From: Candidatus Methylomirabilis limnetica
Lineage (GTDB): Bacteria; Methylomirabilota; Methylomirabilia; Methylomirabilales; Methylomirabilaceae
Length of the DNA: 32,000 bases
Assembly (NCBI RefSeq): GCF_003044035.1
Contig: NZ_NVQC01000024.1
Coordinates: 30,001 to 62,000, forward strand
Reading direction: 5' to 3'
The notes beneath the pieces are model-generated. The model had not been told where the DNA came from. It did no database searches and saw nothing but the letters and a program-made list of their open reading frames with translations. A program made the translations under genes and the position numbers. Numbering within the stretch: the stretch's first letter is position 1; the number at the start of each line of letters is the position of its first letter. Shown piece after piece: positions 6,125-31,078 of this stretch.

Positions 6125-6307
6125 TGGTCTATCTGGTCTATTTGGTCTGTCTGGTCTGTCTGGTCTATTTGGTCTGGGACGAGAAAGACGGAATAGACCA
6201 GAAGGACGGAATAGACCGAAGATGGTCTATCTGGTCTTTCTGGTCCTTCTGGTCATTTGGTCGGTGACGAGATAGACGAAATAGACGGAACAGACCGAAT
6301 AGACCAA
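6125..6307. repeat. Family A intergenic element, copy A1: two consecutive hairpin units built from 9-nt TGGTCTRTY repeats and their complements
   Basis: The first unit has six phased 9-mers (6125-6178), then GACGAGAAAGACGGAATAGACCAGAAGGACGGAATAGACCG. The second has four or five more 9-mers, the core TTTGGTCGGTGACGAG, then GATAGACGAAATAGACGGAACAGACCGAATAGACCA. The element ends 2 nt from the rmuC stop codon. Confidence 0.85.
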
Positions 6308-6308
6308 T

Positions 6309-7697
6309 TTACTCTGCCTCGTCGATATCGAATGCGGTCAGGCGTCGAGGCGCTTGATCGATCGGCTGCAGTTCCTGGATCTCCTTCTTGCCACCGGCTC
6401 CGAGCGCCTGAAACTTTCGGGCCGTGGGGAAGACGCGGCTCTCAAACGAGGCAACCGCGGCGTTATATGAATCCACGGCCTTGCCAATGGCCCCACCGAC
6501 CTTGAGGAGGTGCTCGGCAAGTATCCCCATCCGGTCGGCGAGTTCCTGGCCCAGGGCACAGATGCGCTGGGCGCTCTCCGCGACGAGTTCCTGTCGCCAC
6601 CCATAGGCGATGGCCCGGAGTAGGGCGATAAAGGTCGAGGGTGTCGCGATGACGACCTTCTTCGAGATTGCCGATTCAACCAGAGCCGGATCCTTCTCGG
6701 CGGCTGCGGCGAGAAAGGAGTCGTTCGGGATGAAGAGTACGACGAACTCTGGAGCGGCCGCGAACTGATCCCAGTACTCTTTCGAGGCCAGCTTCGTGAC
6801 GTGCTGGTTCACCTGTGCCGCATGCTTGAGGAGGGCCACTTCGCGTTCCTCATCCGTTTTGGCTTCCAGCGCCTCGAGGAATCCTCCGAGTGGGACCTTG
6901 GAGTCCACCACTACCTCGCGCCCGGCCGGAAGCTTGACGACCATATCGGGGCGGACACGCCCTTCTTCAGTTGTCACGCTCTCCTGTTCCACAAAATCGC
7001 AGTGGGGCGACATCCCGGCGAGCTCAGCCGTTTTCCGAAGCGCGATCTCCCCCCACCGGCCGCGAACCTGTGGGGATCTCAGGGCGTTGACCAGCTTGGC
7101 GGTCTCACTCTGAAGGGTGGTCTGACTCAGGGCGACTGCACGCAGTTGTTCCCCCACTGTGCTGTACTCTCTGAGCCGTTTCTCTTCGAGCGCTTTTGTC
7201 TCTTGCTGATAAATGGAGAGGGTTTCGCTGAGTGGGTTAATAATAGTCTCGATCGCTTTTCTACGAGCGTCCAAATCGACAGTAGCTTCATCCTTCAGCG
7301 CCTTGAACTTCTCCTCGGCGAGGATGAGGAACCCTGTGTTGTTACCGGCCAGCGCTTCAGCCGCAAGCGACTTGAATGTATCAGTGAGCCGGGTCTTTGC
7401 ATCCTCCAGGAGCGCTTTCTGCTCAGTAAGGTTTTTGTCGGTCTCGACGACTCGAGTTTCGGCGGCAGTCCTGGCTGTCTCAGCCTGTCGTAAATCCTCG
7501 CGCAAGGTGTCGAAGTCCTCCCTGGCCGAGGCGAGCTGGATGCGAATCTCCTCAACCCGCGCCTCTGCGGCCGCGGTTCGCGTCTCCTGATCTCGCAAGA
7601 TGGAGCCCGCTGCTGCCTTGGTCCGGGCCGCGCTTATCACCCATCCAAACCCGGCGCCGATCACGAGCCCCAACAGCAGGATCATCCATTCTGTCAT
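6309..7697 (-). CDS. rmuC: DNA recombination protein RmuC
   Basis: N-terminal TM helix (ILLLGLVIGAGFGWV), a long coiled-coil region of about 200 aa, and a C-terminal RmuC nuclease-like region (PDMVVKLPAGREVVVDSKVPL..., VLFIPNDSFL). Confidence 0.8.
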   Translation of the reverse strand: MTEWMILLLGLVIGAGFGWVISAARTKAAAGSILRDQETRTAAAEARVEEIRIQLASAREDFDTLREDLRQAETARTAAETRVVETDKNLTEQKALLEDAKTRLTDTFKSLAAEALAGNNTGFLILAEEKFKALKDEATVDLDARRKAIETIINPLSETLSIYQQETKALEEKRLREYSTVGEQLRAVALSQTTLQSETAKLVNALRSPQVRGRWGEIALRKTAELAGMSPHCDFVEQESVTTEEGRVRPDMVVKLPAGREVVVDSKVPLGGFLEALEAKTDEEREVALLKHAAQVNQHVTKLASKEYWDQFAAAPEFVVLFIPNDSFLAAAAEKDPALVESAISKKVVIATPSTFIALLRAIAYGWRQELVAESAQRICALGQELADRMGILAEHLLKVGGAIGKAVDSYNAAVASFESRVFPTARKFQALGAGGKKEIQELQPIDQAPRRLTAFDIDEAE

Positions 7698-7733
7698 ATT
7701 GAGTTCCCTAGAAAATGTCTAACTGGTCTATCT

Positions 7734-7874
7734 GGTCATTTGGTCTGTTTGGTCTGTTTGGTCTATTTGGTCTGTTTGGTCGGTGACGGAGTAGACGAAA
7801 TGATCCGCTGTCGATTTGGTCGGTGACGAGATGGACGAGATAGACCAAATAGACCAGATAGACGAAATAGACCC
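7734..7874. repeat. Family A intergenic element, copy A2
   Basis: Seven phased TGGTCNNTY units. The core TTTGGTCGGTGACG is present twice (7786-7799 and 7826-7839). These are followed by GATAGACCAAATAGACCAGATAGACGAAATAGACC. It lies between the rmuC start and the rtcB stop. Confidence 0.85.
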
Positions 7875-7893
7875 AAGCCGGCCCATGCGGTCA

Positions 7894-9336
7894 TCACCCT
7901 TTGATGACGCCCATGGGGCGGAGGCGGGCGACCATCTTAGAGAGGCCGGCACGGTGAACAACCGTCACCACTTGGGTCACATCCTTATACGCCTCGGGCA
8001 TTTCTTCAGCCAACGACTCCTGGCCGGACGCCTTGACAATGATCCCTTGATCCTCAAGCTCCCTGTGTATGGCGCGACCTTTGGCGGCCTTGATGGCGGC
8101 ATGGCGACTCATGACCCTGCCAGCTCCATGGCAGGTACTCCCGAAGGTCTGCTCCATGGCGCCCGTTCCCACCAGCACAAAGGAGGCCCGGCCCATGTCA
8201 CCAGGGATGAGCACAGGTTGGCCGATGGCCTGGTAGTGAGCCGGCAGCTCCGGGTGCCCAGGCGGGAAGGCTCGCGTTGCGCCCTTCCGATGGACCGCCA
8301 GCTTAAGCCGCCTGCCCTCGACCTCGTGCTCCTCTACCTTGACGATGTTGTGGGCTACATCATAGACCGTGGAGAGTCCCAATGTCCTGGGGGAGATGCC
8401 AAAGACCTTCAGGAATACCTCCTTCGCCCAGTGGGCCAGACATTGGCGATTGTTCCAGGCAAAGTTGGCGGCGGCCCGCATGGCGCCAAGGTACTGCGTA
8501 GCCTCTGGCGACTTCCAAGGCGTACAGGCGAGCTGCCTGTCTGGGAGCTCTATCCCATACTTCCTCACTGCCCGCTCCATTTCGACGAGAGAATCTGTGC
8601 AGACTTGGTGCCCCAGGCCTCGAGAACCGGTATGAATCATCACGGTCACTTGGCCCTCGAACAGACCGAGAACCTCGGCGGCATGGGGATCGTAGATCTC
8701 GGCGACGGCTTGGACCTCCAGGAAGTGATTGCCGGAGCCTAACGTTCCGAGCTGGCTACTCCCCCGCTCAAGGGCTTTATGGCTTACGGCATCCGGATCA
8801 GCGTCCGCAAGGCACCCGCCGGATTCGATGCAGGCAAGGTCTGCCGGCTCTCCGTACCCCTGTTTAACAGCCCATGCTGCGCCTTTGAGCAGCGGCGCCT
8901 CCATCTCCTGCCTGCTCAAGCGGATCCGGCCCCGTGAGCCGACGCCGGTTGGGATTTCGCTGAACAGGGCGAGGACCAACTCCTTGAGCTTTGGCCGCAC
9001 CTCCTCTTTTGTCAGCTCCGTACGAAGCAATCGAACCCCACAGTTGATGTCGTACCCGACCGCGCCGGGAGACACGACACCATCGGTGATGTCCGTGGCA
9101 ACCACCCCACCGACCGGAAGACCGTACCCCTGATGGATGTCGGGCATGGCAAAGGAGGCCTTGACGATCCCCGGCAGGAAGGCTCCATTAGCCACCTGCT
9201 CCAAGGAGAGGTCCTTCATGATCGCTTGCATCAGGATGTCATCGGCATAGATGATCCCCGGAACACGCATCCCAGGTTTGTAATCTTGCGGGAGTAGCCA
9301 TCGATAGTCATCGAGCTGTTGTACACCCTTGCTCAC
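7894..9336 (-). CDS. rtcB: RNA ligase RtcB (3'-phosphate/5'-hydroxyl RNA-splicing ligase)
   Basis: Contains GYDINCGVR, GSGNHFLEVQ, MIHTGSRGLGHQV and CHGAGR motifs. An AAGAGG lies 6 nt upstream of the GTG at 9336, so I prefer this start to the TTG at 9342. Confidence 0.9.
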   Translation of the reverse strand: MSKGVQQLDDYRWLLPQDYKPGMRVPGIIYADDILMQAIMKDLSLEQVANGAFLPGIVKASFAMPDIHQGYGLPVGGVVATDITDGVVSPGAVGYDINCGVRLLRTELTKEEVRPKLKELVLALFSEIPTGVGSRGRIRLSRQEMEAPLLKGAAWAVKQGYGEPADLACIESGGCLADADPDAVSHKALERGSSQLGTLGSGNHFLEVQAVAEIYDPHAAEVLGLFEGQVTVMIHTGSRGLGHQVCTDSLVEMERAVRKYGIELPDRQLACTPWKSPEATQYLGAMRAAANFAWNNRQCLAHWAKEVFLKVFGISPRTLGLSTVYDVAHNIVKVEEHEVEGRRLKLAVHRKGATRAFPPGHPELPAHYQAIGQPVLIPGDMGRASFVLVGTGAMEQTFGSTCHGAGRVMSRHAAIKAAKGRAIHRELEDQGIIVKASGQESLAEEMPEAYKDVTQVVTVVHRAGLSKMVARLRPMGVIKG

Positions 9337-9348
9337 GTCCAACCTCTT

Positions 9349-9400
9349 GCGTTCATGGCGTTCATGGCGTGTGGCGTTGATTGCGTCTGTGGCGTGGATT
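9349..9400. repeat. Family F degenerate tandem array (units GCGTTCATG x2, GCGTGTG, GCGTTGATT, GCGTCTGTG, GCGTGGATT)
   Basis: Read directly. Six contiguous units all start with GCGT, with a period of 9 (one unit of 7). The array lies immediately upstream of the rtcB ribosome-binding site. Confidence 0.6.
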
Positions 9401-9425
9401 AGTGCTCAGCGCAGAAAATAGCTTA

Positions 9426-9486
9426 CCCCCTTTCCCGAAGCGAGGATTGACCCCTCTTTGGAAAAGAGGGGCGAGGGGAGATTTGC
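9426..9486. repeat. G/C-rich post-stop hairpin element, family member b
   Basis: CCCCTCTTT-GGA-AAAGAGGGG is a perfect 9-bp stem (9451-9471), followed by the CGAGGGGAGATTTG tail. It abuts the mqnC stop codon (9487). Confidence 0.55.
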
Positions 9487-10560
9487 TCATTCTAAGAGCT
9501 GATATCGTGAGTTTCGACGTTTTGGGACAAAACCTGCGTCGGCAATGTTTCGTCGGATCTCATCGAGAGGCATAAGCTGCGCCGTGACGGCAGTCCTCAC
9601 AACATTCTCCTCAAGAACGGTGCTCCCGAAGTCATTGACGCCGTACTGTAGCGAGAGCTGTCCGATCTTTGGGCCCATCGTCAGCCAGGATGCCTGGATA
9701 TGCTGTACATTGTCCAGCATAATTCTGGACACAGCCACAGTCCGAAGATAGCCGTAGCCACTACCACCGCGCCCTCGGAGCGCGTCGCCATTGGGTTGAT
9801 AGCTCCAGGGGATGAAGGCCGTGAAACCGCCGGTCCGATCCTGCAGCTCTCGAATCCTGATAAGGTGCTCAATGCGCTGGGCCAGCGTCTCTCCCACCCC
9901 GTACATCATCGTGGCCGTGCTGGGTATCCCAAGACCGTGGGCGATCTGCATGAGGTTCAGCCAGTCAGATGCGCTCTCCTTAAGTGGCGAGACCCGCTCT
10001 CTCACCTCATCAACTAACAGTTCAGCCCCAGCTCCTGGGATCGAATCGAGGCCAGCCGCTTTAAGCCGCTTCAACGTGTCCTTGAGGGATAGCCTGGAAC
10101 TATCTGATATATAACTGATTTCTACAGTAGAGAGCGCATGGAGATGGACCGGAAAGCGAGCCTTGATTGAGGTGAGCAGATCCTCATAATAGTCGATCTT
10201 CAGGCCGGGGTTAAGCCCCCCTTGCAGCAGGACCTCCGTCCCACCAAGCTCGATCAGCTCCTGGATCTTATGAAAGATATCCTCCTTGGGCAGGAGATAC
10301 CCTTCGGTAGAGCCCGGGACCCGGTAGAAAGCGCAGAACGAACATTGGACCCAGCAGACGTTGGTATAGTTGATGTTACGGCCAATGACATATGTCACAA
10401 CCGGCTCGGGATGTAATCGCCAGCGCACGCAGTCAGCCATCGCGGATAGTTCCAGTAGTGTCGCGCGTTCGAAGAGTTCAACCCCATCATCGAAGCAGAG
10501 CCGCTCCCCCGCCTCGACCTTCTCTGCTATCGCCTCGATCCTGCCGTTCGACTCAGCCAT
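9487..10560 (-). CDS. mqnC: Radical SAM cyclic dehypoxanthinyl futalosine synthase (MqnC type, futalosine menaquinone pathway)
   Basis: NINYTNVCWVQCSFCAFYR is a CxxxCxxC motif. GAGAELL...PLKES...GETLAQRIEHLIRIRELQDRTGGFTAFIPWSYQP...IQASWLTMGPKIGQLSLQYGVNDFGSTVLEENVV matches the MqnC pattern as I remember it. The MqnC versus MqnE assignment was not verified by a search. Confidence 0.6.
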   Translation of the reverse strand: MAESNGRIEAIAEKVEAGERLCFDDGVELFERATLLELSAMADCVRWRLHPEPVVTYVIGRNINYTNVCWVQCSFCAFYRVPGSTEGYLLPKEDIFHKIQELIELGGTEVLLQGGLNPGLKIDYYEDLLTSIKARFPVHLHALSTVEISYISDSSRLSLKDTLKRLKAAGLDSIPGAGAELLVDEVRERVSPLKESASDWLNLMQIAHGLGIPSTATMMYGVGETLAQRIEHLIRIRELQDRTGGFTAFIPWSYQPNGDALRGRGGSGYGYLRTVAVSRIMLDNVQHIQASWLTMGPKIGQLSLQYGVNDFGSTVLEENVVRTAVTAQLMPLDEIRRNIADAGFVPKRRNSRYQLLE

Positions 10561-10671
10561 GCCTTAGATTCCTCGGTTCCATCCGGCACTCGCTATGGGA
10601 CAGCGATCCTGAAGCAGTTAAACTCATGCACCGTTGTTTTGTCAGTCATCTCAATCGGTCCGCGTCCGGGA

Positions 10672-10992
10672 TCAGCCGGCCTTGGCGGTTACCCGCAGCT
10701 TTACGCGGGCCTTCTTCTGGAGGGCGCTCACGATACCGAAGAAGTTCTCTGTACTCGGGTTGCCGCGCGGCGCCAGCATCCGATGCAGGCTCTTGCTCGG
10801 CTTGTTCAGCTCAGCGGCCAATTCTTCGAACCCGACGGTGGCGTTGACCAGATCGCGCAGGATGGCCTTACCCGCGGCGGTGTCACCCCCGAGATAGGCG
10901 TTGATCGCCTCCGTGAAGAGCATTTCGCGAAAACGCGGGTCGAGCTGCGCGCGCGCCACAACTGTGTCCTTGAAATCCCGTGTGAGTGCCAT
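10672..10992 (-). CDS. HTH-type antitoxin (addiction-module antidote protein, HigA-like)
   Basis: MALTRDFKDTVVARAQLDPRFREMLFTEAINAYL...SLHRMLAPRGNPSTENFFGIVSAL. The start at 10992 has a GGAGG 8 nt upstream and lies 16 nt after the toxin stop. The track extension to 11277 overlaps the toxin and is rejected. Confidence 0.7.
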   Translation of the reverse strand: MALTRDFKDTVVARAQLDPRFREMLFTEAINAYLGGDTAAGKAILRDLVNATVGFEELAAELNKPSKSLHRMLAPRGNPSTENFFGIVSALQKKARVKLRVTAKAG

Positions 10993-11008
10993 AGCGCCTC
11001 CGGTCTGC

Positions 11009-11341
11009 TTATCCCTTGGCCTTGCGGCGGCGATAATCGGCCCAGCGCTCCTTCGCCGCCTCGATCGCCTGTTGCTGGCGTTGCTTGGTGCTGCCGCCGA
11101 GCAAGATGACCACGCGCTCGCCGTCCCTGCCGAAATAGACTCGGTAGCCAGGGCCAAAGTCGATTTTTCGCTCGAACACACCCGAGCCGACCCCCTTGAG
11201 GTTTGAAGAGTTGCCCGCGGCCAGTTGATAGAGCGCAACCGCGACCTTGACTGCGGCGGGCGCGTTGAGCCCCTCAAACCAGGCGGCGTACGGCGAGCGA
11301 CCCTCGGGATCGAGGTACTCCAGAATTCGAATGGCTGCCAT
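11009..11341 (-). CDS. RelE/ParE-superfamily toxin (addiction-module killer protein, HigB-like)
   Basis: 110 aa with the GPGYRVYF...VVILLGGSTKQRQQQAIEAAKE pattern. This is typical of the killer-protein family that sits upstream of its antidote. Confidence 0.7.
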   Translation of the reverse strand: MAAIRILEYLDPEGRSPYAAWFEGLNAPAAVKVAVALYQLAAGNSSNLKGVGSGVFERKIDFGPGYRVYFGRDGERVVILLGGSTKQRQQQAIEAAKERWADYRRRKAKG

Positions 11342-11348
11342 CGTCTAA

Positions 11349-11366
11349 GGTAACATATAGGTTACC
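11349..11366. promoter_or_regulatory. Perfect palindrome GGTAAC-ATATAG-GTTACC, a candidate operator of the toxin-antitoxin pair
   Basis: Read directly, 8 nt upstream of the toxin ATG (11341). The AT-rich TATAT flanks could double as the -10 region. Confidence 0.4.
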
Positions 11367-11509
11367 ATATAAACTCTGTCACAGCAATCACGAAAAGTTT
11401 CACCGTATGGTGAAGGGCAGGGAAATTCAGTTCGATTCCCTTGCCTTACCCGGAGCTCCTTAAACCCCTAGACCCCTGAAACACTGCAGCGCTGGTCAGT
11501 ATAGCAGCT

Positions 11510-12643: not shown

Positions 12644-12975
12644 CGGCGCGGTTTGCCTCTGGACTCAACGTCTCCGCCTGCCTGTTGCGTGCCTATACCG
12701 TCGATCTGTTTGAGGAGAGCAATCGCACTCAGTTCGTAGCTATGGCGCGCCTGCTCATAGTCTTCGAGACTGAGCCTCCCAGCCTGGTAATCGAACTCAA
12801 GCTCCTTGATTGCGGCATATACCATTTGCTTCTCGGCCAGGAGCTCCTGCAACTCGGTCTGTTCTGACCACAGTGGAACTCCATTAGACGATCTGAAGAA
12901 CGGCATGATTACCGGCAAGAGGGCGAGAAGAACTAGCAGGATGATAATTAGTATTAACATTATGGTTGGGTTCAA
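12640..12975 (-). CDS. Membrane-anchored CcmI-like N-terminal domain protein (no TPR region)
   Basis: N-terminal TM helix, then ELQELLAEKQMVYAAIKELEFDYQAGRLSLEDYEQAR. This resembles the CcmI/CycH N-terminal segment (…ELERDLAEG-L-xxEY…). The track start is a TTG at 12975, and an ATG at 12960 is an alternative. Its stop overlaps the mqnE ATG (ATGA). Confidence 0.4.
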   Translation of the reverse strand: MNPTIMLILIIILLVLLALLPVIMPFFRSSNGVPLWSEQTELQELLAEKQMVYAAIKELEFDYQAGRLSLEDYEQARHSYELSAIALLKQIDGIGTQQAGGDVESRGKPRR

Positions 12976-13095
12976 CGTTCAATGTTCAACGTTCAACGTT
13001 GCACCCCGAACATTGCACGTTGAACATTGCACTTTGAACGTTGCACGTTGAACATTGCACTTTGAACGTTGCACGTTGAACATTGAACGTTGAAC
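12970..13095. repeat. Family B element B1: 18 in-phase heptamers (4 x GTTCAAY followed by 14 x NTTGMAC), including a 28-nt higher-order repeat
   Basis: 126 nt equals 18 x 7, read directly. GTTCAAC is the reverse complement of GTTGAAC, so the first four units can pair with any later GTTGAAC unit. GTTGAACATTGCACTTTGAACGTTGCAC occurs at 13019-13046 and again at 13047-13074. Confidence 0.85.
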
Positions 13096-13611: not shown

Positions 13612-13653
13612 AAGGAACTCTGAACTTTGAACCTTGAACGTTGAACGTTGAAC
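13612..13653. repeat. Family B element B2: six in-phase NNNGAAC heptamers (AAGGAAC TCTGAAC TTTGAAC CTTGAAC GTTGAAC GTTGAAC)
   Basis: Read directly. It has the same unit and orientation as B1 and lies between the ccmH start and the ccmG stop. Confidence 0.7.
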
Positions 13654-13658
13654 GCAGA

Positions 13659-20167: not shown

Positions 20168-20898
20168 CAACTCGCGCCTCGAACGATAGCTGGTACATCC
20201 CTTTCGATTCTACCCGCCTGGCTCCTCGAACAGAAAAGTTCAGGCAACGACGTAGGCAGAAGAGACACCCCAAACTCAACCTCGAAACGTTCGATAAGAG
20301 CCACCATCACCTCACGAACTGAGATTGGACGAGACAACTCCTGTGTCATGCTTGTCATCTTGGCGCCCTGGATACCGCAAGGAACGATCATCTCAAACGG
20401 CGCCAGATCCATATTGATGTTCAGCGCGAAACCATGACGGGTGACCCACCGGCTGACATGAATGCCTAGCGAGGCAATCTTCTCTTCACCCACCCAGACG
20501 CCCGTCCGACCGAGTGAGCGACCAGCAGCGATCCCGAAGCCCGATAGGGTCATAATCAGCACCTCTTCGAGCTGCCGAAGGTATCGATGCAGGTCACGAC
20601 CATGTTCGGTCAGATTGAGGATCGGGTAGCCTACTAACTGGCCAGGACCGTGATAGGTCATGTCGCCACCACGCTCCACTTCGAAAAACTCGATTCCCAT
20701 CGCGGCCAGGGAAGATTCCGGTACGCGGAGGTGAGCCATCTGCCCGGCTCGCCCGAGGGTAATAACCGGCGGGTGTTCGACGAGGAGCAGGACATCCCCC
20801 AGGCGGTCCTCAGCCAGAAGAGTCGCCAGCCGGCGTTGCAGGGTGAGTGTTTCGGTGTAGGGTATGAGCCCAAGGTCAATCAGGCTACAGGTCGGCAT
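20167..20898 (-). CDS. lipB: Octanoyltransferase LipB
   Basis: Contains HGPGQLVGYPI, KIASLGIHVSRWVTRHGFALN and VPCGI motifs. I prefer the ATG at 20898, because the track extension to 20961 is a translation of the family D repeat array. Confidence 0.85.
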   Translation of the reverse strand: MPTCSLIDLGLIPYTETLTLQRRLATLLAEDRLGDVLLLVEHPPVITLGRAGQMAHLRVPESSLAAMGIEFFEVERGGDMTYHGPGQLVGYPILNLTEHGRDLHRYLRQLEEVLIMTLSGFGIAAGRSLGRTGVWVGEEKIASLGIHVSRWVTRHGFALNINMDLAPFEMIVPCGIQGAKMTSMTQELSRPISVREVMVALIERFEVEFGVSLLPTSLPELFCSRSQAGRIERDVPAIVRGAS

Positions 20899-20899: not shown

Positions 20900-21024
20900 A
20901 GTAGTACAGGGTAGAGGGTTGAGGGTATAGGGTTTAGAGTGCAGGGAAAGGACGGGAGCACAACTTATTCATACTTCTTTTCTCCTATCTTATCCTCTAC
21001 CCTCTACCCTATAGCCTATACGCT
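20900..21024. repeat. Family D element: 7 in-phase NNAGGGT heptamers, a core of about 35 nt, then about 6 complementary CTACCCT-type heptamers
   Basis: The left arm (20906-20954) is ACAGGGT AGAGGGT TGAGGGT ATAGGGT TTAGAGT GCAGGGA AAGGACG. The right arm (20990-21024) is TTATCCT CTACCCT CTACCCT ATAGCCT ATACGCT. It lies between the lpd stop and the lipB start. Confidence 0.8.
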
Positions 21025-21030
21025 TCTTCT

Positions 21031-22504: not shown

Positions 22505-22600
22505 TCCCCCCCCCCATCCTCACCTTCCCCCTCATGGGGGGGAAGGGACCCCTTACGCGACCTCCTCCCCCCTTGAGGGGGAGGATTGAGGTGGGGGGTA
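22505..22600. repeat. G/C-rich post-stop element, family member d (two hairpins)
   Basis: The first hairpin is CCTTCCCCCTCATGGGGGGGAAGG (22523-22546). The second is CCTCCCCCCTTGAGGGGGAGG (22564-22583), followed by ATTGAGGTGGGGGG. The element lies between the E2 stop (22630) and the lpd start (22443). Confidence 0.55.
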
Positions 22601-23868: not shown

Positions 23869-23894
23869 TGTGCGTATGTCTCCTCTTCTTATTT

Positions 23895-24023
23895 TGGTCT
23901 ATTTCGTCTATCTGGTCTATTTCGTCTATCTGGTCTATTTCGTCTATCTGGTCTGTTTGGTCTATCTGGTCTGTTTGGTCTGTGACGAAATAGACTGAAT
24001 AGACGAGAAGGACGGAATAGACC
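23895..24023. repeat. Family A intergenic element, copy A3 (asymmetric: 10 left-arm units and about 4 right-arm units)
   Basis: (TGGTCTATT TCGTCTATC) x3, then TGGTCTGTT TGGTCTATC TGGTCTGTT TGGTCTGTG, then ACGAAATAGACTGAATAGACGAGAAGGACGGAATAGACC. It fills the whole pdhB-E2 spacer, and its right end overlaps the pdhB stop codon. Confidence 0.85.
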
Positions 24024-25000
24024 TAAATAGCCATGACCTTCTTTACCGCCGCGATGACCCGTTCTTTGCTTGGGGCCTTGGCACGCTCAAGGTTCTTCGC
24101 GTATGGCGTCGGGGCGTTGGCGCCGGTGACCCGCTCCACCGGGGCGTCCAGATAATCAAAAGCCTGCTCAGAAATGATGGCCGCGATCACCGTCGCTATC
24201 CCGGCGAATCCGGCGCCGGACTCCATGACTACAGCCCGGTTGGTCTTCTTGACCGACTCGATGATCATGTCAGCATCCAGCGGGCGGAGCGTACGCGGAT
24301 CCACTACCTCCACAGAAATCCCCTCCTTCTCCAGATCCTCTGCCACCTGCAAGGCCAGCAGAAGCATCGTAGAGTAGGCTACGATAGTGACATCGCGTCC
24401 CTCCCGCTTTATTTCGCCGACACCAAGCGGGATGGTGTACTCGCCATCCGGCACCTCGCCCTTGGTCCCGTACAGAAGCTCTGACTCGATGAAGATGACC
24501 GGATCATCGTCACGGATCGCACTTTTAAGAAGTCCCTTTGCATCCTTAGGGGTCCCTGGGCGCACGATCTTGAGACCAGGAACATGATAGAAGTACGACT
24601 CCATGCTCTGCGAGTGCTGAGCCGCCAATTGATGCGCCGGGCCGCCAGGGCCGCGAATGACCAGTGGAACATTATACTGCCCGCCGGACATGTACAGGAT
24701 CTTCGCTGCTTGATTGACGATCTGATCGATCGCCACCAGCGCGAAGTTAAAGGTCATCATCTCCACAATCGGCCGCAAGCCGACCATCGCCGAGCCGATA
24801 CCGACGCCGGTAAACCCGGCCTCACTGATCGGGGTGTCGATGACCCGCTTGGGGCCAAACTCCTCAAGCAGGCCTTGACTGACCTTATAGGCCCCCTGGT
24901 AGAGGGCTACTTCCTCTCCCATAAGAAAAACGCGAGGGTCTCGGCGCATCTCTTCGCGGAGCGCCTGATTTAGAGCCTCTCGATAGGTGATAATTGCCAT
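24023..25000 (-). CDS. pdhB: Pyruvate dehydrogenase E1 component, beta subunit
   Basis: MAIITYREALNQALREEMRRDPRVFLMGEEV...IDTPISEAGFTG, a typical transketolase-like beta subunit. The ATG at 25000 is preceded by GAGGGAGGGA and lies 16 nt after the pdhA stop. Confidence 0.85.
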   Translation of the reverse strand: MAIITYREALNQALREEMRRDPRVFLMGEEVALYQGAYKVSQGLLEEFGPKRVIDTPISEAGFTGVGIGSAMVGLRPIVEMMTFNFALVAIDQIVNQAAKILYMSGGQYNVPLVIRGPGGPAHQLAAQHSQSMESYFYHVPGLKIVRPGTPKDAKGLLKSAIRDDDPVIFIESELLYGTKGEVPDGEYTIPLGVGEIKREGRDVTIVAYSTMLLLALQVAEDLEKEGISVEVVDPRTLRPLDADMIIESVKKTNRAVVMESGAGFAGIATVIAAIISEQAFDYLDAPVERVTGANAPTPYAKNLERAKAPSKERVIAAVKKVMAI

Positions 25001-25016
25001 GCTCTCGTTCCCTCCC

Positions 25017-25988
25017 TCAGCGCTCTGAGACGTAGACGTCGGTGTGCAGCCACTCCACTGGTGGCTCTGGGGAGGCATCGGCGTAGCGAATCGCCTCCTC
25101 CACCGTAGTTTGGACTTCCTTCTCCAGCGCCTTCCAATCCGACTCCTTAATCACCGCCTCGGCCATGAGGTGGGCCCGAAACGTCACGAGGGGGTCCCGT
25201 TGCTTTTCTCGTTCGACCTCCTCTTTCGTTCTGTAGGTACCCGGATCCGCCATCGAGTGCCCCCGGAATCGATATGTCTTGGCCTCGATCAAAGAAGGGA
25301 TGCGTTCTCGTCGGGCCCGTTCTACTGCTAACCCCACACACTCCCGAACGGCCAGGACATCCATCCCGTCTACCGCCTCGCCGGGCATCCCATACGCCTC
25401 GGCCCTTCGGTACAGCTCCTTGACTGGGGTGGCGCGCTCTACAGCAGTCCCCATGCCGTAACGATTGTTCTCGCAGATATAGACGATCGGCAGGTGCCAC
25501 AGGGCCGCGAGATTCAGCGCCTCGTGGAACACGCCCTGGTTGACGGCGGCGTCCCCAAAGAAGCAGAGCGTGACCTGATCCTTCCCCTCGTACTGGCTCG
25601 CGAAGGCGGCGCCAGTTCCGATCGGAATCTGCCCCGCCACGATCGCATGCCCCCCCAGGAAGTTGCGGCTCTTATCAAATAGGTGCATCGAGCCACCCTT
25701 GCCCTTACAGAGGCCATCCGCCCGACCGAACAGCTCCGCCATCATCCTCCGTGGATCGCAGCCCTTGGCTAAGGCATGGCCATGTTCCCGGTAACTGGCA
25801 ATCACATAGTCGTCTGGTCGCAACACAGAAATGGCGCCCGTTGCCACCGCTTCCTGGCCGATATACAGATGCAGGAAGCCGCCGATCTTGCCCATGGAGT
25901 ACATCTCCGCGCACTTCTCCTCGAACCGGCGCATCAGGAGCATCTGTCGGAGGAGATCTACCAGCTCCTTCTGCTCTAACTTCTGCAT
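25017..25988 (-). CDS. pdhA: Pyruvate dehydrogenase E1 component, alpha subunit (ThDP-binding)
   Basis: [13 protein letters not shown], and ThDP motif GDAAVNQG...[10 protein letters not shown]. At 323 aa it matches the heterotetrameric E1 type. Confidence 0.85.
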
Positions 25989-26920
25989 AGCTCAGTCCTC
26001 TCGCTCTCACGCTTCCGGCTGACTTCCTCAGCCTGGCCGCGGGCATGGTACGAACTCCGGACCAGGGGCCCGGACTCTACGTACTTAAACCCCATCCCTT
26101 CCCCGATCGCCTTCAACTCACTAAACTCCTTTGGAGTATAGTATTTCATAATCGGCAGGTGCGCGCGGCTTGGCCGCAGGTACTGTCCCAGCGTCAGAAT
26201 ATCGCAATCGACAGCCCTGAGGTCAGCCATCGTCTGGAGCAATTCCTGCCATGCCTCCCCGAATCCCACAATGATCCCTGACTTCGTGACTAACTCCGGC
26301 GCCAATCGTCGCGCCATAGCCAGAAGATCGAGTGACCGCTCATAGTGCGATCCCGGACGGACCTCTCGATACAACCGGGGAATAGTTTCCACGTTGTGGT
26401 TCAGGATAGCGGGTCCGGCCTCGACCACCGTTCTCAGGGCGGCCTTGCTACCACGAAAATCAGGAATCAGCACCTCAACGCTACAGCCAGGGGCAAGCCC
26501 CCTCACCCTGCGAATCACGGCCGCAAAGATACTCGCCCCCCCGTCGGGCAAGTCATCGCGATTGGCGGAGGTCACCACAGCATGGGCCAGCCCCAGCGCG
26601 CTAATCGCCTTGGCCACCCGCTCCGGCTCGGTCCGATCGAGTTCTGTCGGCTTGCCCTGTTTGACCGCACAGAAGCTGCAATTACGGGTGCAGGTATCGC
26701 CCAGGATGAGGAAGGTTGCGGTAAGCTCCTCCCAGCATTCGCCGATGTTGGGACAATGGGCCTCTTCGCAGATGGTCTGAAGCTGCTGCTCTTGAAGGAG
26801 CCGTTTCAGCCGAAGGTAGTTGGGTGCGCCTGGCGCCTTGACCTTCAGCCAGGGTGGCTTGGGTGAGCCAAAAATCTCGGGAAGCGAAATCAGCGGCGTT
26901 ACCTTAACCGGTTGGAGCAC
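25976..26920 (-). CDS. lipA: Lipoyl synthase LipA (radical SAM)
   Basis: Auxiliary cluster motif [12 protein letters not shown], radical SAM motif [10 protein letters not shown], and C-terminal RSSY. The 3' end overlaps the pdhA start by 13 nt. Confidence 0.9.
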
Positions 26921-27158
26921 AAATGCCTCATTTGAGCCCGTATAAGTGATCAGTCAGGCCGCCGTTTGGGAAGGCGGCACACAGGCCTACTCGCCAATTC
27001 TTCTACCATAGTCTTGACCCGATTGTCAACCTGAGAAGGACGCAGTTCACCTGATCTGGACGATCACCCGCCGCTCACGTGGACCGTCAAACTCCACGAG
27101 CATCAGGCTCTGTCAGGTTCCCAGCACCAGTCTCCTGCCGTCTTGACGAAGAACTCTT

Positions 27159-28058
27159 TCATCTGTTGACCTGTCCCGCCTGGTCGCGAGGAATACGACT
27201 ACCCTCTTCACCCTTACAGCCGGACGCGGTAGTGCGGGAGGCAGATACGGCGGCGAGCAACTGTTCGAACTTTGCCTCTGGCACTGCTGACCTGCCAAGC
27301 CCGTCTGATCGGAGCCCAGGAGTGCCATGGTAGTCAGATCCGCCGACTGCCAATAGACCGTATCTCAGGCACGCTCGCTCGTAACGGAATAGCGATTCGG
27401 TATCGTGTTCCAGGTGATACACCTCCAGTCCCATAAGCCCATGCTGCACGAGAGATGGAATAATCTCGTCGTGACCGTACTGCCCAGGATGCGCAAGGGA
27501 TGGCACGCCTCCAGCTTCCTTGATGGTACGGATCACTCCGGTCGCAGGAATTCTGGAGCGTTCCACGTAGCCTGGCTTGCCCGTAGTCAGGTATCGGTCA
27601 AACGCCTCCTTCATCGACGTCACATATCCGCGCCTGATCATCGCCTGTGCCACATGGGGACGCCCAACCGAGGAGCCTAGCGCCATACTCAAGACCTCAT
27701 CAGCGTCCAGCGGGAGACCAAGAGCCCAGAGCTTCGCGATCATCCGATGGGCCCTCTCGATTCGGTCGTTACGGGAGGAGGCAAGGAATGCGGCAAGTTG
27801 GTTATCGTCCGGATCGATGAAATGCCCCAGAATGTGAATCTCCAGGTCCCCCACGTGCGCGGTAATCTCGACGCCTGCCACGACCTGCAGGCCCACCTGC
27901 GAGGCCTCCGCCACCGCCGCTGGAAGACCCTCCAGGGTGTCATGATCGGTAACGGCCAGGACTGAGATATTGCAGTCCTTGGCGAAGCGAACCAATTGTT
28001 GCGGAGAGAGGACGCCGTCAGAAGCAGTCGTGTGGGTGTGCAGATCGATAAGGCGCAT
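27159..28058 (-). CDS. PHP-domain metal-dependent phosphoesterase (TrpH/YciV-like)
   Basis: N-terminal IDLHTHTTASDG, followed by VLAVTDHD, SLAHP and GGSDYHG motifs. Confidence 0.75.
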   Translation of the reverse strand: MRLIDLHTHTTASDGVLSPQQLVRFAKDCNISVLAVTDHDTLEGLPAAVAEASQVGLQVVAGVEITAHVGDLEIHILGHFIDPDDNQLAAFLASSRNDRIERAHRMIAKLWALGLPLDADEVLSMALGSSVGRPHVAQAMIRRGYVTSMKEAFDRYLTTGKPGYVERSRIPATGVIRTIKEAGGVPSLAHPGQYGHDEIIPSLVQHGLMGLEVYHLEHDTESLFRYERACLRYGLLAVGGSDYHGTPGLRSDGLGRSAVPEAKFEQLLAAVSASRTTASGCKGEEGSRIPRDQAGQVNR

Positions 28059-28064
28059 CGCGTG

Positions 28065-28092
28065 AGCTATTAGCTATTAGCTATTAGCTGCT
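28065..28092. repeat. Family E heptamer array AGCTATT x3 plus AGCTGCT, overlapping the fdhD stop codon
   Basis: Read directly. The array encodes the last residues (QQLIANS) and the stop of fdhD, and ends 7 nt from the PHP start codon. Confidence 0.6.
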
Positions 28093-28897
28093 GGATATGG
28101 GACAGGCGGCTGGTCGCCACCCGCTGTGGAAGCAGACGCTCGGGGTGGCTATAGACATTAAATCCTTCGCCCCGGCAGTAGCCGATCACGGTGATGCCGA
28201 AGCGCTTGGCCGCGGCAATGGCGAGGCTGGTGGGTGAGGTTCGAGAGATGACAATTGGGGTCCGCATGTGGGCCCCCTTACGAAGCATCTCAGACGAGAT
28301 GCGACCGGTGGAGAGGAGGATATTGCCGGCAGTCGTAATCCCCTGCTGAAGTGCTTCGCCGTGGATCTTATCCAGAGCGTTATGTCGGCCGACGTCCTCG
28401 GCGACAAGCAGCAGGCTCTTGCCGTCGCTCAGGGCGGCGGCGTGAATGCCACGCGACTCCCGATAGAGATGCGCCGCGGCATACAACTGTTTCATGAGAT
28501 CGAACGGTTGCTCCGGGCGCAGGATCGCCTCCTCTGGGAATGCTTTAAACCCCTCCATCGGCATGCCGAATGTGATACCTCCGGTGCACCCGGATGTCAG
28601 GATTCGGTGACTCGGGGGGGTGAATGCCTTGGTCAGTCTGACGTCTGCCACCGCCTCCTCTGTGAAGACCTCCAGCGAGTTAACCTCATCGAGCTCCTGG
28701 ATGATCCCCTCAAAACTCAAAAAACCCAGGACCAGGCAATCGAGCTTCACCGGCGTACACATCAACGTCGCCAGCTCACGACCGTTGACAAAGATCGTGA
28801 GGGGATGCTCCCCCACCACTGGAATCTCTACCGTCTCGTACGATCCACCGCGGTACCGAACGATTCGATGTATGGACATACTAGTCCCAGAGGGCAC
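28070..28897 (-). CDS. fdhD: FdhD-family sulfurtransferase (formate dehydrogenase accessory protein)
   Basis: Contains EDVGRHNALDK and a C-terminal SGRISSEMLRKGA...ISRTSPTSLAI pattern. The start is either the GTG at 28897 or the ATG at 28879. Confidence 0.75.
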   Translation of the reverse strand: MPSGTSMSIHRIVRYRGGSYETVEIPVVGEHPLTIFVNGRELATLMCTPVKLDCLVLGFLSFEGIIQELDEVNSLEVFTEEAVADVRLTKAFTPPSHRILTSGCTGGITFGMPMEGFKAFPEEAILRPEQPFDLMKQLYAAAHLYRESRGIHAAALSDGKSLLLVAEDVGRHNALDKIHGEALQQGITTAGNILLSTGRISSEMLRKGAHMRTPIVISRTSPTSLAIAAAKRFGITVIGYCRGEGFNVYSHPERLLPQRVATSRLSHIQQLIANS

Positions 28898-28955
28898 TGA
28901 TGAAGTGCCCTACGCCATACCATGCAACCGTGACCAATAGCCCGATCGCCATCAT
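28881..28955 (-). CDS. Candidate 24-aa hydrophobic micro-protein (MMAIGLLVTVAWYGVGHFISALWD)
   Basis: My own translation. GAGG lies 5 nt upstream of the ATG ATG at 28955/28952. There is a single predicted TM helix. The TAG stop lies 1 nt before the fdhD ATG at 28879. I recognise no homology. Confidence 0.2.
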   Translation of the reverse strand: MMAIGLLVTVAWYGVGHFISALWD

Positions 28956-29125
28956 CTCGACCTCATCTTCCGAAAAGCCCTTGCTCCGGTAGATCTAGCG
29001 CATAAAGACGACCTCGCGAACGGCTCGTCCCTTCGGAGAATGCCAACTCTCCTCGATTGCAGCACTCCCGGCGCTAGCCTCGTTCATTGCCGCGCCACTC
29101 GGGAGGGGTCCGCACGCCAAACCTC

Positions 29126-29554
29126 TTATTCGCCCATTACCTGGAGTTGGATCTGCCGGTCTCTTGGCCCGTCCAGCTCGGCGAAGATAATCGACTCAAA
29201 GGTGCCGAGACTCATCTCCCCGTCCACCACAGGAATCGAAAGCTGTCGGCCAAGCAGGAGGGAGCGAAGGTGCGAGTCGGCGTTGCTTCGATCACAATCA
29301 GAGTAATTTGGATCGTTGTGGCGATAGCCGTCATGCTCATTGATCAGGCGGTCCAGCAGGAGCTGGATGTCATGAAGTAGAGCCTCCTGCCACTCATTGA
29401 TGAACAATGCAGTCGTCGTGTGAAGGGAACTGAGGGTGAGCAACCCCTGTTTGATCTCATGCCGCTGAAGAAGATCTCGCACACGCTTTGTCAGATCCGT
29501 GAACTGGAGTCGCTCCTCCGTAGTCACCGTAAAGGTTTCGTGCCTGATCACCAT
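29126..29554 (-). CDS. yjbQ: YjbQ/UPF0047 family protein (annotated in databases as secondary thiamine-phosphate synthase enzyme)
   Basis: SSLHTTTALFINE and NADSHLRSLLLG motifs, 142 aa. The ATG at 29554 is preceded by GGAGGGAGG, and the track extension to 29629 is rejected. Confidence 0.75.
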   Translation of the reverse strand: MVIRHETFTVTTEERLQFTDLTKRVRDLLQRHEIKQGLLTLSSLHTTTALFINEWQEALLHDIQLLLDRLINEHDGYRHNDPNYSDCDRSNADSHLRSLLLGRQLSIPVVDGEMSLGTFESIIFAELDGPRDRQIQLQVMGE

Positions 29555-29704
29555 GCCTCCCTCCGTTGATTTGCCGAACTCTTCACAGAGATGCCTACCG
29601 CCAAAGACAGCAACATCCCCACCCCTCAAACCCAGACTTATACCACTCTCGGCTATAAACGCGATCCCTCCATACTGACTTCACGCCCGCTCGCCTTGAG
29701 TCAG

Positions 29705-30166
29705 CTACCAGTCAGCGTGGAGGTCAGGCCGCTGCTTCAGCGCCTCCGCTAGTGGCGTCATCAGGCGATCCTTTCCGTACACGAAGCCGCCCCTGTTGTA
29801 GGAGGCAAGCTCGTACTGTTTCCCCAGCACAATCGCCTCCTCCGGGCAGGCCTCCTCACAGTAGCCGCAAAAGATGCAGCGCAGCATATGGATCTTGTAC
29901 ACCTTCGCGTAGCGCTCACCCCTGGAGTGACGCTCTTGCTCGGTGTTCTCGGCTGCCTCAACATAGATCGCATCGGCAGGACAGGCGACGGCGCACAGTT
30001 CACAGCCCACACACCGCTCCATCCCGTCCTCTCCCACCACGAGCATGTGCAGACCACGGTAGCGAGGCGCAAGCGGTAGCCGCTCTTCCGGATAGGAGAC
30101 CGTCACCGGCTTCCGGAAGATATGCTTGAATGTCGTCGCCAGCCCCTTGAGAATCTCGCCAATCAT
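29705..30166 (-). CDS. nuoI: NADH-quinone oxidoreductase subunit I-like 2x[4Fe-4S] ferredoxin
   Basis: N-terminus MIGEILKGLATTFKHIFRKPVTVSYPEE, plus CVGCELCAVACP and CIFCGYCEEACP. I prefer the ATG at 30166, because the track extension runs into repeat element C1. Confidence 0.8.
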   Translation of the reverse strand: MIGEILKGLATTFKHIFRKPVTVSYPEERLPLAPRYRGLHMLVVGEDGMERCVGCELCAVACPADAIYVEAAENTEQERHSRGERYAKVYKIHMLRCIFCGYCEEACPEEAIVLGKQYELASYNRGGFVYGKDRLMTPLAEALKQRPDLHADW

Positions 30167-30184
30167 CGTCGCCACCCTTGACGC

Positions 30185-30347
30185 GTAACTACTCAGGTGT
30201 TTAGACTGAAGGCTGAAGACTGAAGGTTCTAAATTGCCTCGCAAGGCACGAGTCGAGCCATTCAAGACCTTTTCGGAGTTTTATATGATCACGCATGACT
30301 TACCCCTAAAAGCCTTCAGCCTTCAGCCTATCTACCTGAGTAGCTAC
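30185..30347. mobile_element. Family C MITE-like element C1: imperfect terminal inverted repeats of about 40 bp containing CTGAAGR heptamers, an 85-bp core, flanked by the 8-bp direct repeat CTTGACGC
   Basis: The left end is GTAACTACTCAGGTGTTTAGACTGAAGGCTGAAGACTGAAGG. The reverse complement of the right end is GTAGCTACTCAGGTAGATAGGCTGAAGGCTGAAGGC, matching about 31 of the first 37 positions. CTTGACGC occurs at 30177-30184 and again at 30348-30355, immediately outside both ends. Confidence 0.65.
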
Positions 30348-30371
30348 CTTGACGCAACACGCGCGACTTCC

Positions 30372-30917
30372 CTATGCCGTCCTTCGCCAAGGGAGGTGGA
30401 AGAGGCCCTGGCTGCTCGGCCGTTCCTTGGCGATCTTTTCCTGCAACAGCATGATCCCATGGATCAGCTGCTCCGGCCTGGGCGGGCAGCCGGGAACATA
30501 GACATCCACCGGAACAACCTGATCCACACCCTGAACGATGGTATAGGTGTTGAAGATTCCGCCGCAGGAGGCACACGCGCCCATGGCGATCACCCACTTT
30601 GGCTCAGGCATCTGATCGTAGATCCGTCTCAGGACTGGGGCCATCTTGCGGCTCACGCGGCCGGCCACAATCATCAGGTCGGACTGACGTGGCGACCCAC
30701 GAAAGACCTCCGCCCCGAATCTGGCAAGATCGAAACGCGACGCGCCCGTTGCCATCATCTCAATAGCACAGCAGGCAAGCCCGAAGCTCGCCGGCCAGAT
30801 CGACGACTTCCTCGCCCAATTGATCAGGCTATCCAGGGTTGTGAGGAGGAGGCCCCGCTCAAATTCCTCCGCTTCGGCCTTGGAGGGCAGGATGTCGTTC
30901 TCCGTCAACTGAAGCAT
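30372..30917 (-). CDS. nuoB: NADH-quinone oxidoreductase subunit B-like (N2 cluster subunit)
   Basis: [20 protein letters not shown] and VPGCPPRPE supply all four cluster cysteines. The protein is 181 aa. Confidence 0.85.
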
Positions 30918-30930
30918 ACGATGTATCCTC

Positions 30931-31078
30931 GTAACTACTTAGGTGTTCAGGCTGAAGGTTGAAGGTGATGCATTATCTCGCACAGCACAAATCAAATGCC
31001 AGAAGTTTTTTGCGATCACTGCTTTATACCTAACAGCCTTCAGTCTTCAGCCTTCAGTCTATCTACCTGAATTGTGAC
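30931..31078. repeat. Family C element C2 (more diverged copy, same orientation as C1, no flanking duplication seen)
   Basis: The left end is GTAACTACTTAGGTGTTCAGGCTGAAGGTTGAAGG. The reverse complement of the right end is GTCACAATTCAGGTAGATAGACTGAAGGCTGAAGACTGAAGG. The core is unrelated to the C1 core. Confidence 0.6.

Follow-up and report, generated by a model that had tools for sequence, protein, structure and literature searches.

What are the phased arrays of 7-nt and 9-nt units that occupy the spacers between genes in Candidatus Methylomirabilis limnetica: conserved regulatory structures, or repeat DNA that the genome can do without? The arrays were studied at positions 6,125-31,078 of a window of 32,000 nt (assembly GCF_003044035.1, contig NZ_NVQC01000024.1, positions 30,001-62,000 of the forward strand), and positions below are those of this window. 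An earlier note on this DNA had described most of them as a forward array, a core and an inverted array, and had proposed a common generating mechanism or a structure-level function. Comparison with relatives made it fairly probable that the spacers hold non-essential, rapidly turning-over repeat DNA, made up of slippage arrays and miniature inverted-repeat transposable elements (MITEs), which is selfish or mutational rather than a set of conserved regulators.

Array-filled spacers of the window

Arrays were called with Tandem Repeats Finder (TRF), gene boundaries were taken from a Pfam map, and spacers were counted if they measured at least 10 nt. Every array listed in the earlier note was recovered, and arrays of period 7 or 9 were present in 10 of the 18 spacers at 6125-31078, which agrees with its count of at least ten spacers, about half of all. 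Six loci had period 7 and four had period 9. All non-overlapping arrays of these periods with at least three copies (15/15) were intergenic; spacers constitute only about 11% of the window. Gene bodies contained just two trivial matches of 2.1-2.4 copies. The claim of a strictly intergenic position held with one qualification, an array that straddled the stop codon of fdhD, the sole array to do so. The distance from the upstream stop codon to the start of the array was 0-21 nt.

Nearly all genes were on the minus strand. The Pfam map comprised thiC, rmuC, rtcB and two futalosine-pathway radical-SAM genes; ccmHGFECBA, a response regulator gene and lipB; the genes of 2-oxoacid dehydrogenase E3, E2, E1-beta and E1-alpha, then lipA; and the genes of a PHP protein, fdhD, a UPF0047 protein, a nuoI-like gene, nuoB and iscA. 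The location of several copies inside operons was confirmed by this map. Since the genes are nearly all co-directional and operonic, the elements would be transcribed and would place long imperfect hairpins with several pairing registers between cistrons. The RmuC protein (gene at 6309-7697) was found exactly in five public assemblies whose DNA was 100% identical to the window; an assembly artefact was rejected because five independent assemblies agreed completely over the region. RmuC homologues placed the host in the phylum NC10, Candidatus Methylomirabilis, and not among the cyanobacteria, as had been suspected; the closest named homologues were from Methylomirabilis sp. (88%) and M. lanthanidiphila (83%). 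The G+C content of the window was 57.9%.

The 9-nt unit TGGTCTATC formed palindromic arrays at three places. At 6125-6305 two of them abutted: array A (6125-6221), in the gap that separates the thiC promoter from the rmuC stop codon, consisted of (TGGTCTRTY)x5.7, a 3-nt centre and (GACSRRAWA)x5 and contained an inverted repeat of 40 nt with 73% complementarity (I9), and the adjoining array B (6223-6305) began 3 nt past the rmuC stop codon. The array at 7724-7872 in the rtcB/rmuC spacer contained the motif TTTGGTCGGTGACGRAG twice in its centre and included the inverted repeats I1 and I3. The third, at 23893-24022, had 10 + 5 units and took up the whole E1-beta/E2 spacer between stop codon and ribosome-binding site (inverted repeats I2, I4, I6, I8, I11 and I24). 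A weak one-arm 9-nt array with 73-100% matches was located on the minus strand at 9349-9395, upstream of rtcB; its unit, GCGTTCATG on the plus strand and CATGAACGC in mRNA sense, was of the type found in the arrays of L211 and L212 (L numbers denote the loci compared).

Among the heptamers, a palindromic array at 12970-13095 in the ccmH/next-gene spacer (TRF period GTTGAAC, 18.0 copies) consisted of four GTTCAAC units followed by 14 GTTGMAC units, and a one-arm array on the minus strand (13621-13654; GTTCAAC x4.9 in mRNA sense) began 4 nt past the ccmG stop codon. In the E3/lipB spacer (20900-21025), GGGTAGA-type heptamers at 20904-20934 and their complement at 20994-21021 enclosed a core of about 60 nt. 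An array of AGCTATT x3.6 on the minus strand (28065-28089) overlapped the final codons of fdhD together with its stop codon and ended 7 nt before the next gene. Arrays of CTGAAGG and its complement at 30206-30329 and 30950-31060 were situated inside MITE copies. A shared layout despite unrelated units, as first described, was apparent in general.

Some of the arrays touched on the reading of neighbouring genes. The gene of a 106-aa membrane protein downstream of ccmH started 9 nt after the 18-unit array (cccaaccataATG, 12961-12975) and had no recognisable Shine-Dalgarno sequence; in L008 and L010 this gene started 4 nt past the ccmH stop codon. The end of fdhD ran into a CAGCTNT/AGCTATT heptamer array in the window (28070-28095), L012 (5491-5525) and L019 (3405-3431), so that the array encodes a short, species-variable C-terminal tail and provides the stop codon. 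The lipB open reading frame (ORF) reached 20961, and the actual start is probably downstream of the array, near 20880. In GGGTAGA/GGGTATA arrays the pattern G3N4 occurred at least four times (20904-20934 on the plus strand; L006, 3713-3747; L010, 2523-2554), which is a canonical G-quadruplex motif. The rmuC gene (6309-7697) had long palindromic arrays on both flanks, which is probably a coincidence; in E. coli, rmuC is reported to limit inversions at short inverted repeats.

Turnover and insertion at orthologous sites

The rmuC regions of relatives were obtained through RmuC homologues in other Methylomirabilis genomes, and an E2 protein search of a genome collection yielded seven close loci of Methylomirabilis type and about 70 from other lineages, three to four of these being distant Methylomirabilota. 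Orthologous spacers were compared across about 15 relatives. Synteny was kept within the genus Methylomirabilis, and the spacers were not; the arrays were not conserved among relatives.

One species was nearly devoid of arrays. In L008, with an RmuC 82% identical, no array was present in 21 kb and the spacers measured 4-58 nt. The ccmH/next-gene spacer, 147 nt with 18 units in the window, measured 4 nt (cgac) in L008 and L010; in L006 it measured 70 nt with a shorter GTTCAAC hairpin of the window's heptamer family, and L016 had one as well. At the rtcB/rmuC and rmuC/thiC sites, relatives with 94%, 91% and 88% RmuC identity had AACGCAATN 9-mers, GCTGAHN heptamers or nothing. The site of array B was empty in L006, L008, L213 and L214 and had AACGCAATN 9-mers instead in L211 and L212; the site of the 7724-7872 array contained a one-arm array of CAATAGACC x4 in L006, AACGCAATN in L212 and GCTGAHN heptamers in L211. 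The E3/lipB element had an orthologue in L012, a single arm in L014 and other content in L016, L017 and L019. At the end of fdhD (28065-28089), related CAGCTNT arrays were present at the equivalent place in L012 and L019.

Two junctions were occupied again and again by different units. In the ccmG/ccmH spacer, heptamers were found in five of five genomes, GGGTRTA in L006, L008 and L010 and GTTCAAC in the window and L016. In the E1-beta/E2 spacer, an element of period 7 or 9 was found in 9 of the 11 Methylomirabilota loci, with at least four types of unit: the 9-mer in the window and, as a hairpin, in L015; GGGTATA-type arms in L012, L013, L014, L017 and L019; GATGTCA/TCCGACA in L018; and AACCGAC in L023. 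The stretch of about 25 nt that precedes the E2 start codon and includes the Shine-Dalgarno sequence stayed conserved.

Where an element was retained, it changed gradually. An orthologous arm had four units in L013 and five in L012, and the older MITE copy described below had three heptamers in the window and two in L012; the five assemblies of the present strain were identical, so the variation in copy number that the comparison with relatives brought out was between species. One array of L006 mixed AACGCAATA and GACCCAATA units and bridged, on the mRNA strand, the GCGTTCATG-type and the TGGTCTRTY-type 9-mers, which indicates that these two "families" are stages of one drifting array type. 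The statement that unit sequences are unrelated between families did not survive for the two 9-nt ones, which are evolutionary relatives. Gradual drift of units at orthologous sites points to evolution in place rather than replacement.

The short or empty spacers of L008, L010, L012, L014 and L019 argue for dispensability, and the turnover series across about 15 species favours an origin that is selfish or mutational, with the repeats confined to whatever stretch of a spacer is free. That a structure-level function has been conserved is unlikely, because the elements were absent, replaced or resized at equivalent sites in close relatives. In the public record of L016 (14365-14465), a run of N stood exactly at the start of the ccmG/ccmH heptamer array; several short-read contigs ended near arrays, and the repeats appear to break or gap assemblies.

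The CTGAAGG element in the nuoB/nuoI spacer was of another kind. Alignment to empty sites delimited it at 30185-30347 (163 bp; 30177-30355 with its flanks): the spacer measured 19-29 nt in L012, L014 and L019, where it was empty and had one copy of the CTTGACGC site, and about 180 nt in the window. The element was flanked by a perfect 8-bp direct duplication of CTTGACGC (30177-30184 and 30348-30355). Its terminal inverted repeats, 30185-30221 and 30311-30347 (inverted repeat I5), were 37 nt long and 84% complementary, and its termini, GTAACTACTCAGGT... and ...ACCTGAGTAGCTAC, each contained 2-3 CTGAAGG heptamers. The longest nuoI-like ORF (29705-30265) extended into the element, and alignment with relatives identifies the ATG at 30164-30166 as the real start, which leaves 10 nt between it and the duplicated target site.

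An older copy of 148 bp in the iscA/nuoB spacer (30931-31078) was 67% identical to that at 30185-30347 and 85% identical to its orthologue in L012, and a further copy at another locus, on metagenome contig L114, carried a nested insertion of a GC-rich hairpin. Terminal inverted repeats, a target-site duplication together with an empty site, and a small, non-coding, multicopy sequence were found for the CTGAAGG family only; the 163-bp insertion bears the signature of a MITE and is demonstrably recent. Comparison of filled and empty sites (the ccmH/next-gene spacer; the E2/E3 spacer of L015) revealed neither a target-site duplication nor fixed termini for the core-less 9-mer and GTTGAAC arrays. 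Not every family is thus of the same kind, the CTGAAGG elements being MITEs with terminal inverted repeats and target-site duplication.

Folding, distribution and competing explanations

The RNA of the mRNA strand was folded and compared with 200 dinucleotide shuffles. Eight elements folded better than their shuffles (z -2.3 to -9.9), in agreement with the claim that most arrays can form long imperfect hairpins: array A (-33 kcal/mol, z -5.9), array B (-28.9 kcal/mol, z -3.8), 7724-7872 (z -5.8), 12970-13095 (z -6.2), 20900-21025 (z -4.2), 23893-24022 (z -9.9), the nuoB/nuoI MITE at 30177-30355 (z -4.4) and the iscA/nuoB copy at 30931-31078 (z -2.3). Three arrays had no partner arm (9349-9395, z +1.6; 13621-13654, z -0.5; 28065-28089, z -2.4), so that "most" is the correct word for palindromic arrays and "all" would be wrong. 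Eight array-free spacers used for comparison had z scores of -2.5 to +0.9. The 25 longest inverted repeats of the window were all in array spacers or in two GC-rich hairpin elements.

Pairing of the arms in several registers was also found: the arm at 12970-13000 had nine registers with 83-97% complementarity, and the arm at 23984-24023 had six. The arms were unequal in length (4 against 14 units; 5 against 10 units). When the order of units was permuted within one arm, the match to the other arm barely fell (summed z 1.9; the observed value was reached in 16 of 500 permutations), and in view of this weak result no claim of selected pairing is made. The arms match because both are arrays of a shared unit, and not because position-by-position complementarity has been kept. 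As to arm complementarity, the folds beat dinucleotide shuffles, but no clear mirror-order matching was found beyond the shared unit composition.

The hairpins were not terminator-like: a scan for the GC-rich stem and U tract of intrinsic terminators found 18 such sites against 14.7 expected, with no enrichment and only one inside an array. No Rfam family reached the gathering threshold for the arrays, the thiamine pyrophosphate (TPP) riboswitch being the only match to pass; by E-value the arrays had sub-threshold matches to miRNA-precursor hairpins. The double hairpin at 6125-6305 occupied precisely the interval from the rmuC stop codon to the thiC promoter, with CUUUU after the last stem. 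The thiC leader beyond it (minus strand, 5927-6109) comprised a promoter-like TTGACA-17-TAGATT (6081-6109), the TPP riboswitch (5958-6069; Rfam) and a terminator-like stem with a U tract (5927-5950). The thiC riboswitch is seemingly missing in L006 and L008, whose rmuC/thiC spacers were 41 and 15 nt.

A separate family of GC-rich, near-perfect hairpins, unrelated to the arrays, had the form AAATCCCCC...CCCCTTT-loop-AAAGGGG...GGGGGATTT. Members were found at 4431-4562, 9415-9486, 22510-22598 and possibly 1807-1876 (spacers M24/thiC, mqn/rtcB and E3/E2), and elsewhere in L010 (11440-11490), L211 (about 960-1010), L101, L163 and L114 (1200-1250, nested in the MITE). These hairpins look more like repetitive extragenic palindromic (REP) sequences, or REP doublets forming hairpins (REPINs), than the arrays do.

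Arrays with at least three copies were then counted in 15 Methylomirabilota loci (216 kb) and in 68 loci of other phyla (1.04 Mb). Those of period 7 or 9 occurred at 21.3 per 100 kb in Methylomirabilota and at 2.6 per 100 kb in other phyla, a difference of about 8-fold, while arrays of other periods were equally frequent (4.2 and 4.6 per 100 kb). The excess is therefore specific to these two periods and to Methylomirabilota, which lends the proposed common generating mechanism partial support.

A metagenome scan for three TGGTCTNTN units found strict TGGTCTRTY arrays at no fewer than 80 loci (a lower bound); among the matches listed, an inverted arm was present in 17-22 of these. A large 9-mer family across phyla was rejected because permuted-unit controls in viral contigs matched as often (15 matches for the real unit; 6, 51 and 34 for three permuted units). 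The direct T/G-rich 9-mer arrays elsewhere are accordingly background, in part coding repeats, and the two-arm intergenic TGGTCTRTY form alone was counted as common to Methylomirabilis and Nitrospirota. Flanking proteins of six two-arm loci and of the one-arm locus L133 clustered with Nitrospirota, and those of one other one-arm locus with Syntrophorhabdaceae. A full-text literature search for the 9-mer sequence found no paper, and the literature searched contained nothing on these units or on such repeats in NC10/Methylomirabilis or Nitrospira.

The two-arm 9-mers had a fixed order. The TGGTCT arm stood 5' of the AGACCA arm in 17 cases and the reverse in none among the metagenome matches listed (L091-L210), to which six in the window and L015 are added. 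Relative to the flanking genes, the purer TGGTCT arm was antisense in 38 cases and sense in 12, so that in the mRNA the homogeneous arm is the A/C-rich one adjoining the downstream gene.

How such DNA could come about may be pictured as follows. Replication slippage or unequal exchange would give rise to the 7-nt and 9-nt arrays and remodel them where they stand; copy number would shift, and the unit sequence would drift and then be homogenised. Many arrays would gain an inverted second arm, probably through template switching or inverted duplication. MITEs with such heptamers in their terminal inverted repeats, at least the CTGAAGG elements, would move by transposition. Purifying selection would restrict both kinds to the expendable part of the spacer, bounded on one side by the upstream stop codon and on the other by the ribosome-binding site or promoter downstream; often they take up the whole of this part. 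Any effect on the mRNA, such as 3'-end protection, processing or pausing, would be a by-product like that of REP sequences and bacterial interspersed mosaic elements (BIMEs), although some sites may have co-opted it. The sequences demonstrate the confinement to spacers, the capacity to form hairpins, the excess of periods 7 and 9 in this lineage, the turnover between relatives and one insertion of the transposition type; that slippage drives the process, how the second arm arose and what follows for the RNA are inferred.

Several observations weigh against this picture of expendable repeats. The E1-beta/E2 junction was occupied in 9 of 11 loci, including distant lineages with 47-55% E2 identity, and the ccmG/ccmH junction in 5 of 5; such recurrent occupancy could reflect selection for hairpins rather than tolerance. 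The TGGTCT-first order (17:0 among the listed metagenome matches, with the six in the window and L015) was fixed, and the 38:12 antisense polarity is related to transcription and is not predicted by pure slippage. Without a target-site duplication, the spread of the core-less arrays between loci is unexplained. Slippage itself was not observed, the five assemblies of the strain being identical, and the preference for periods 7 and 9 over 8 is left unaccounted for.

Junction recurrence and transcription-related polarity keep the chief alternative explanation alive, which is nevertheless unlikely: that intercistronic RNA stem-loops have been selected, and set the abundance of operon segments in the manner of REP/BIME elements or of the short tandemly repeated repetitive (STRR) heptamers at hupS-hupL, by blocking 3' exonucleases, offering RNase III sites, or causing RNA polymerase pausing or partial termination. 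If only structure were selected, units would be free to change. The different units that recur at E1-beta/E2 and ccmG/ccmH, the strong folds (z down to -9.9), the polarity of 38:12 relative to transcription and the position of the double hairpin at 6125-6305, with its CUUUU, speak for this explanation. Cyanobacterial STRR hairpins have indeed been proposed to act in transcript stability or translational coupling (PMC2670836). Yet the elements were missing at equivalent junctions in L008, L016, L021 and L213/L214, one of them is demonstrably a recent insertion, and three arrays had no partner arm at all. Where two arms existed, they were very unequal and had no clear mirror-order complementarity, and terminator-like sites were found at 18 against 14.7 expected, with one in an array. 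In other phyla the median gap between the upstream ORF and the E2 match was 30 nt, a figure that is indicative only, as ORF ends were detected roughly.

A further proposal, judged distinctly improbable, is that the arrays are more than tolerated and form a transcription-oriented class of register-shiftable hairpins of Methylomirabilota and Nitrospirota. The A/C-rich arm adjoining the downstream gene would be primary and actively homogenised, and the inverted arm would join it on the upstream side. Expression ratios at operon junctions such as E1-beta/E2 and ccmG/ccmH would then depend on the structure or on a protein recognising the units, and such arrays would be raw material for MITE terminal repeats.

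Proteins could also be the readers of the DNA itself. One model is the omega repressor of plasmid pSM19035, for which contiguous 7-bp heptads serve as binding sites whether they are direct or inverted; another is MetJ, which binds tandem 8-bp boxes. Contiguous direct and inverted short units are, by analogy, the architecture of such operators. The arrays might then be tracks for small cooperative dimeric proteins, with one dimer per unit, or binding sites of the transposase that moves them, with roles in regulation, nucleoid organisation or mobilisation. Fixed arm polarity within each family, heptamers in the MITE terminal inverted repeats and the two-arm 9-mer layout in Nitrospirota would suit this proposal, which we nonetheless hold to be quite doubtful: at least five unrelated units in 25 kb would need many binding proteins, most arrays are within operons and far from promoters, and copy number and unit sequence vary freely between close relatives. 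No candidate binding protein or transposase was present among the Pfam-scanned proteins of the window, and 9-mer direct arrays in viral contigs were no commoner than the permuted-unit controls.

It is very unlikely that all elements, core-less arrays included, are REPIN-like or MITE-like mobile hairpins moved by a transposase encoded elsewhere, the tandem units being the internal structure of their ends. Units are shared by several loci (TGGTCTRTY by three, GTTGAAC by two, CTGAAGG by two), arm polarity is fixed, relatives have clean empty sites for some of the elements, one family is bounded by terminal inverted repeats and a target-site duplication, and L114 has a nested insertion. But the core-less arrays have no conserved termini or target-site duplication, one-arm arrays exist, units drift gradually at orthologous sites, and no transposase, including REP-associated tyrosine transposases (RAYTs), was found by the Pfam scan among the 30 proteins of the window. 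A phase-variation switch is unlikely, given the location in operons between stop codon and ribosome-binding site and the lack of variation among assemblies, and DnaA boxes, CRISPR, iterons, Rho-loading (rut) sites and CsrA sites were dropped on sequence grounds, the units mismatching or fitting some families only.

Relation to known repeats and meaning

STRR sequences have been known since 1990, and their origin and function are still unsettled. Their units include CCCCAGT, TTGGTCA and CAACAGT; GTTGAAC, GGGTAGA, CTGAAGG and AGCTATT are presumably different from these, and the 9-mer of the window shares TTGGTC with STRR2. Of the repeats described so far, the STRR heptamers of filamentous cyanobacteria come closest, and the earlier note chose well in naming STRR and REP/BIME elements as the nearest ones and in doubting a cyanobacterial host. 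Shared features are a non-coding position, often in operons, a forward array followed by its complement and a hairpin transcript; tandem 7-nt units are common to STRR and six of the loci here, the other four having period 9, and copy number varies between strains in STRR and between species here. Differences are the NC10 host, the other units, the equal prominence of the 9-nt period, several unrelated units within 25 kb and the link with a MITE. In cyanobacteria, STRR heptamers form the hupS-hupL intergenic hairpin (PMC2670836) and are found in the P6b stem of the Nostoc tRNA-Leu (trnL) intron (PMC3488679).

Among the long simple repeats of bacteria (units of 5-11 nt), heptamers are the most frequent, and polymerase slippage has been named as their cause (Mrazek 2007, as summarised in PMC4679880). 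The arrays of the window, with up to 18 copies and the enrichment of periods 7 and 9, have units in this range and are longer than expected by chance. In Xanthomonas and Nostoc, 89-93% of the GGGNATC repeats are intergenic; they lie between the same genes in relatives and vary in length (PMC4692102). With these systems the arrays share the excess of heptamers, an intergenic location (about 90% there) nearer to the 3' end of the upstream gene, the occupation of equivalent gene junctions in related species, and variation in length and sequence, and the GGGTAGA arm shares the G3N4 (G-quadruplex-type) pattern with GGGNATC. Those repeats are mostly one-arm direct arrays with one dominant unit, whereas the arrays here are mainly two-arm palindromes with many units.

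The TAACTGA heptamers of marine Beggiatoaceae, cyanobacteria and Bacteroidetes are direct repeats (169 direct sets and 1 indirect; PMC4679880), forming short arrays a few nt upstream of start codons in operons; distant phyla share them, and their mechanism is not known. Unlike this single, almost never inverted unit, the arrays of the window abut the upstream stop codon and are mostly palindromic. Heptanucleotide multicopy elements have also been described in Geobacter metallireducens (PMC2700814).

Functions of REP sequences on mRNA are secondary effects of selfish intergenic elements. Like REP/BIME elements and REPINs, the arrays are intergenic, often at 3' ends within operons, form hairpins from inverted pairs and differ in presence between related genomes. 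REP sequences are unique palindromes of 20-40 nt mobilised by RAYTs, whereas the arms here are tandem 7-9-nt units with no fixed boundaries, and the Pfam-scanned proteins of the window included no RAYT. The REPIN concept is outlined in PMC3116915. The CTGAAGG element resembles bacterial MITEs such as Correia and the cyanobacterial Nezha in being short (163 bp), non-coding, multicopy and intergenic, with terminal inverted repeats and a target-site duplication; it differs from them in having tandem heptamers in the terminal inverted repeats, in numbers that vary between orthologous copies.

Novelty here lies in the phylum, in the prominence of the 9-nt period, in a dominant two-arm layout in which several units occur next to one another, in a turnover series that could be resolved and in the connection to a MITE. 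In practice, the elements appear to break short-read assemblies, as in the run of N at an array in L016, and inflate apparent intergenic novelty in metagenome-assembled genomes of methane- and nitrite-cycling bacteria. With the same operon junctions sampled over about 15 species, they provide an unusually dense and well-resolved comparative series, and the phenomenon is extended to NC10, to Nitrospirota and to a 9-nt period. The series shows repeats as they emerge, shift in unit sequence, acquire a second arm and, once, move as a MITE.

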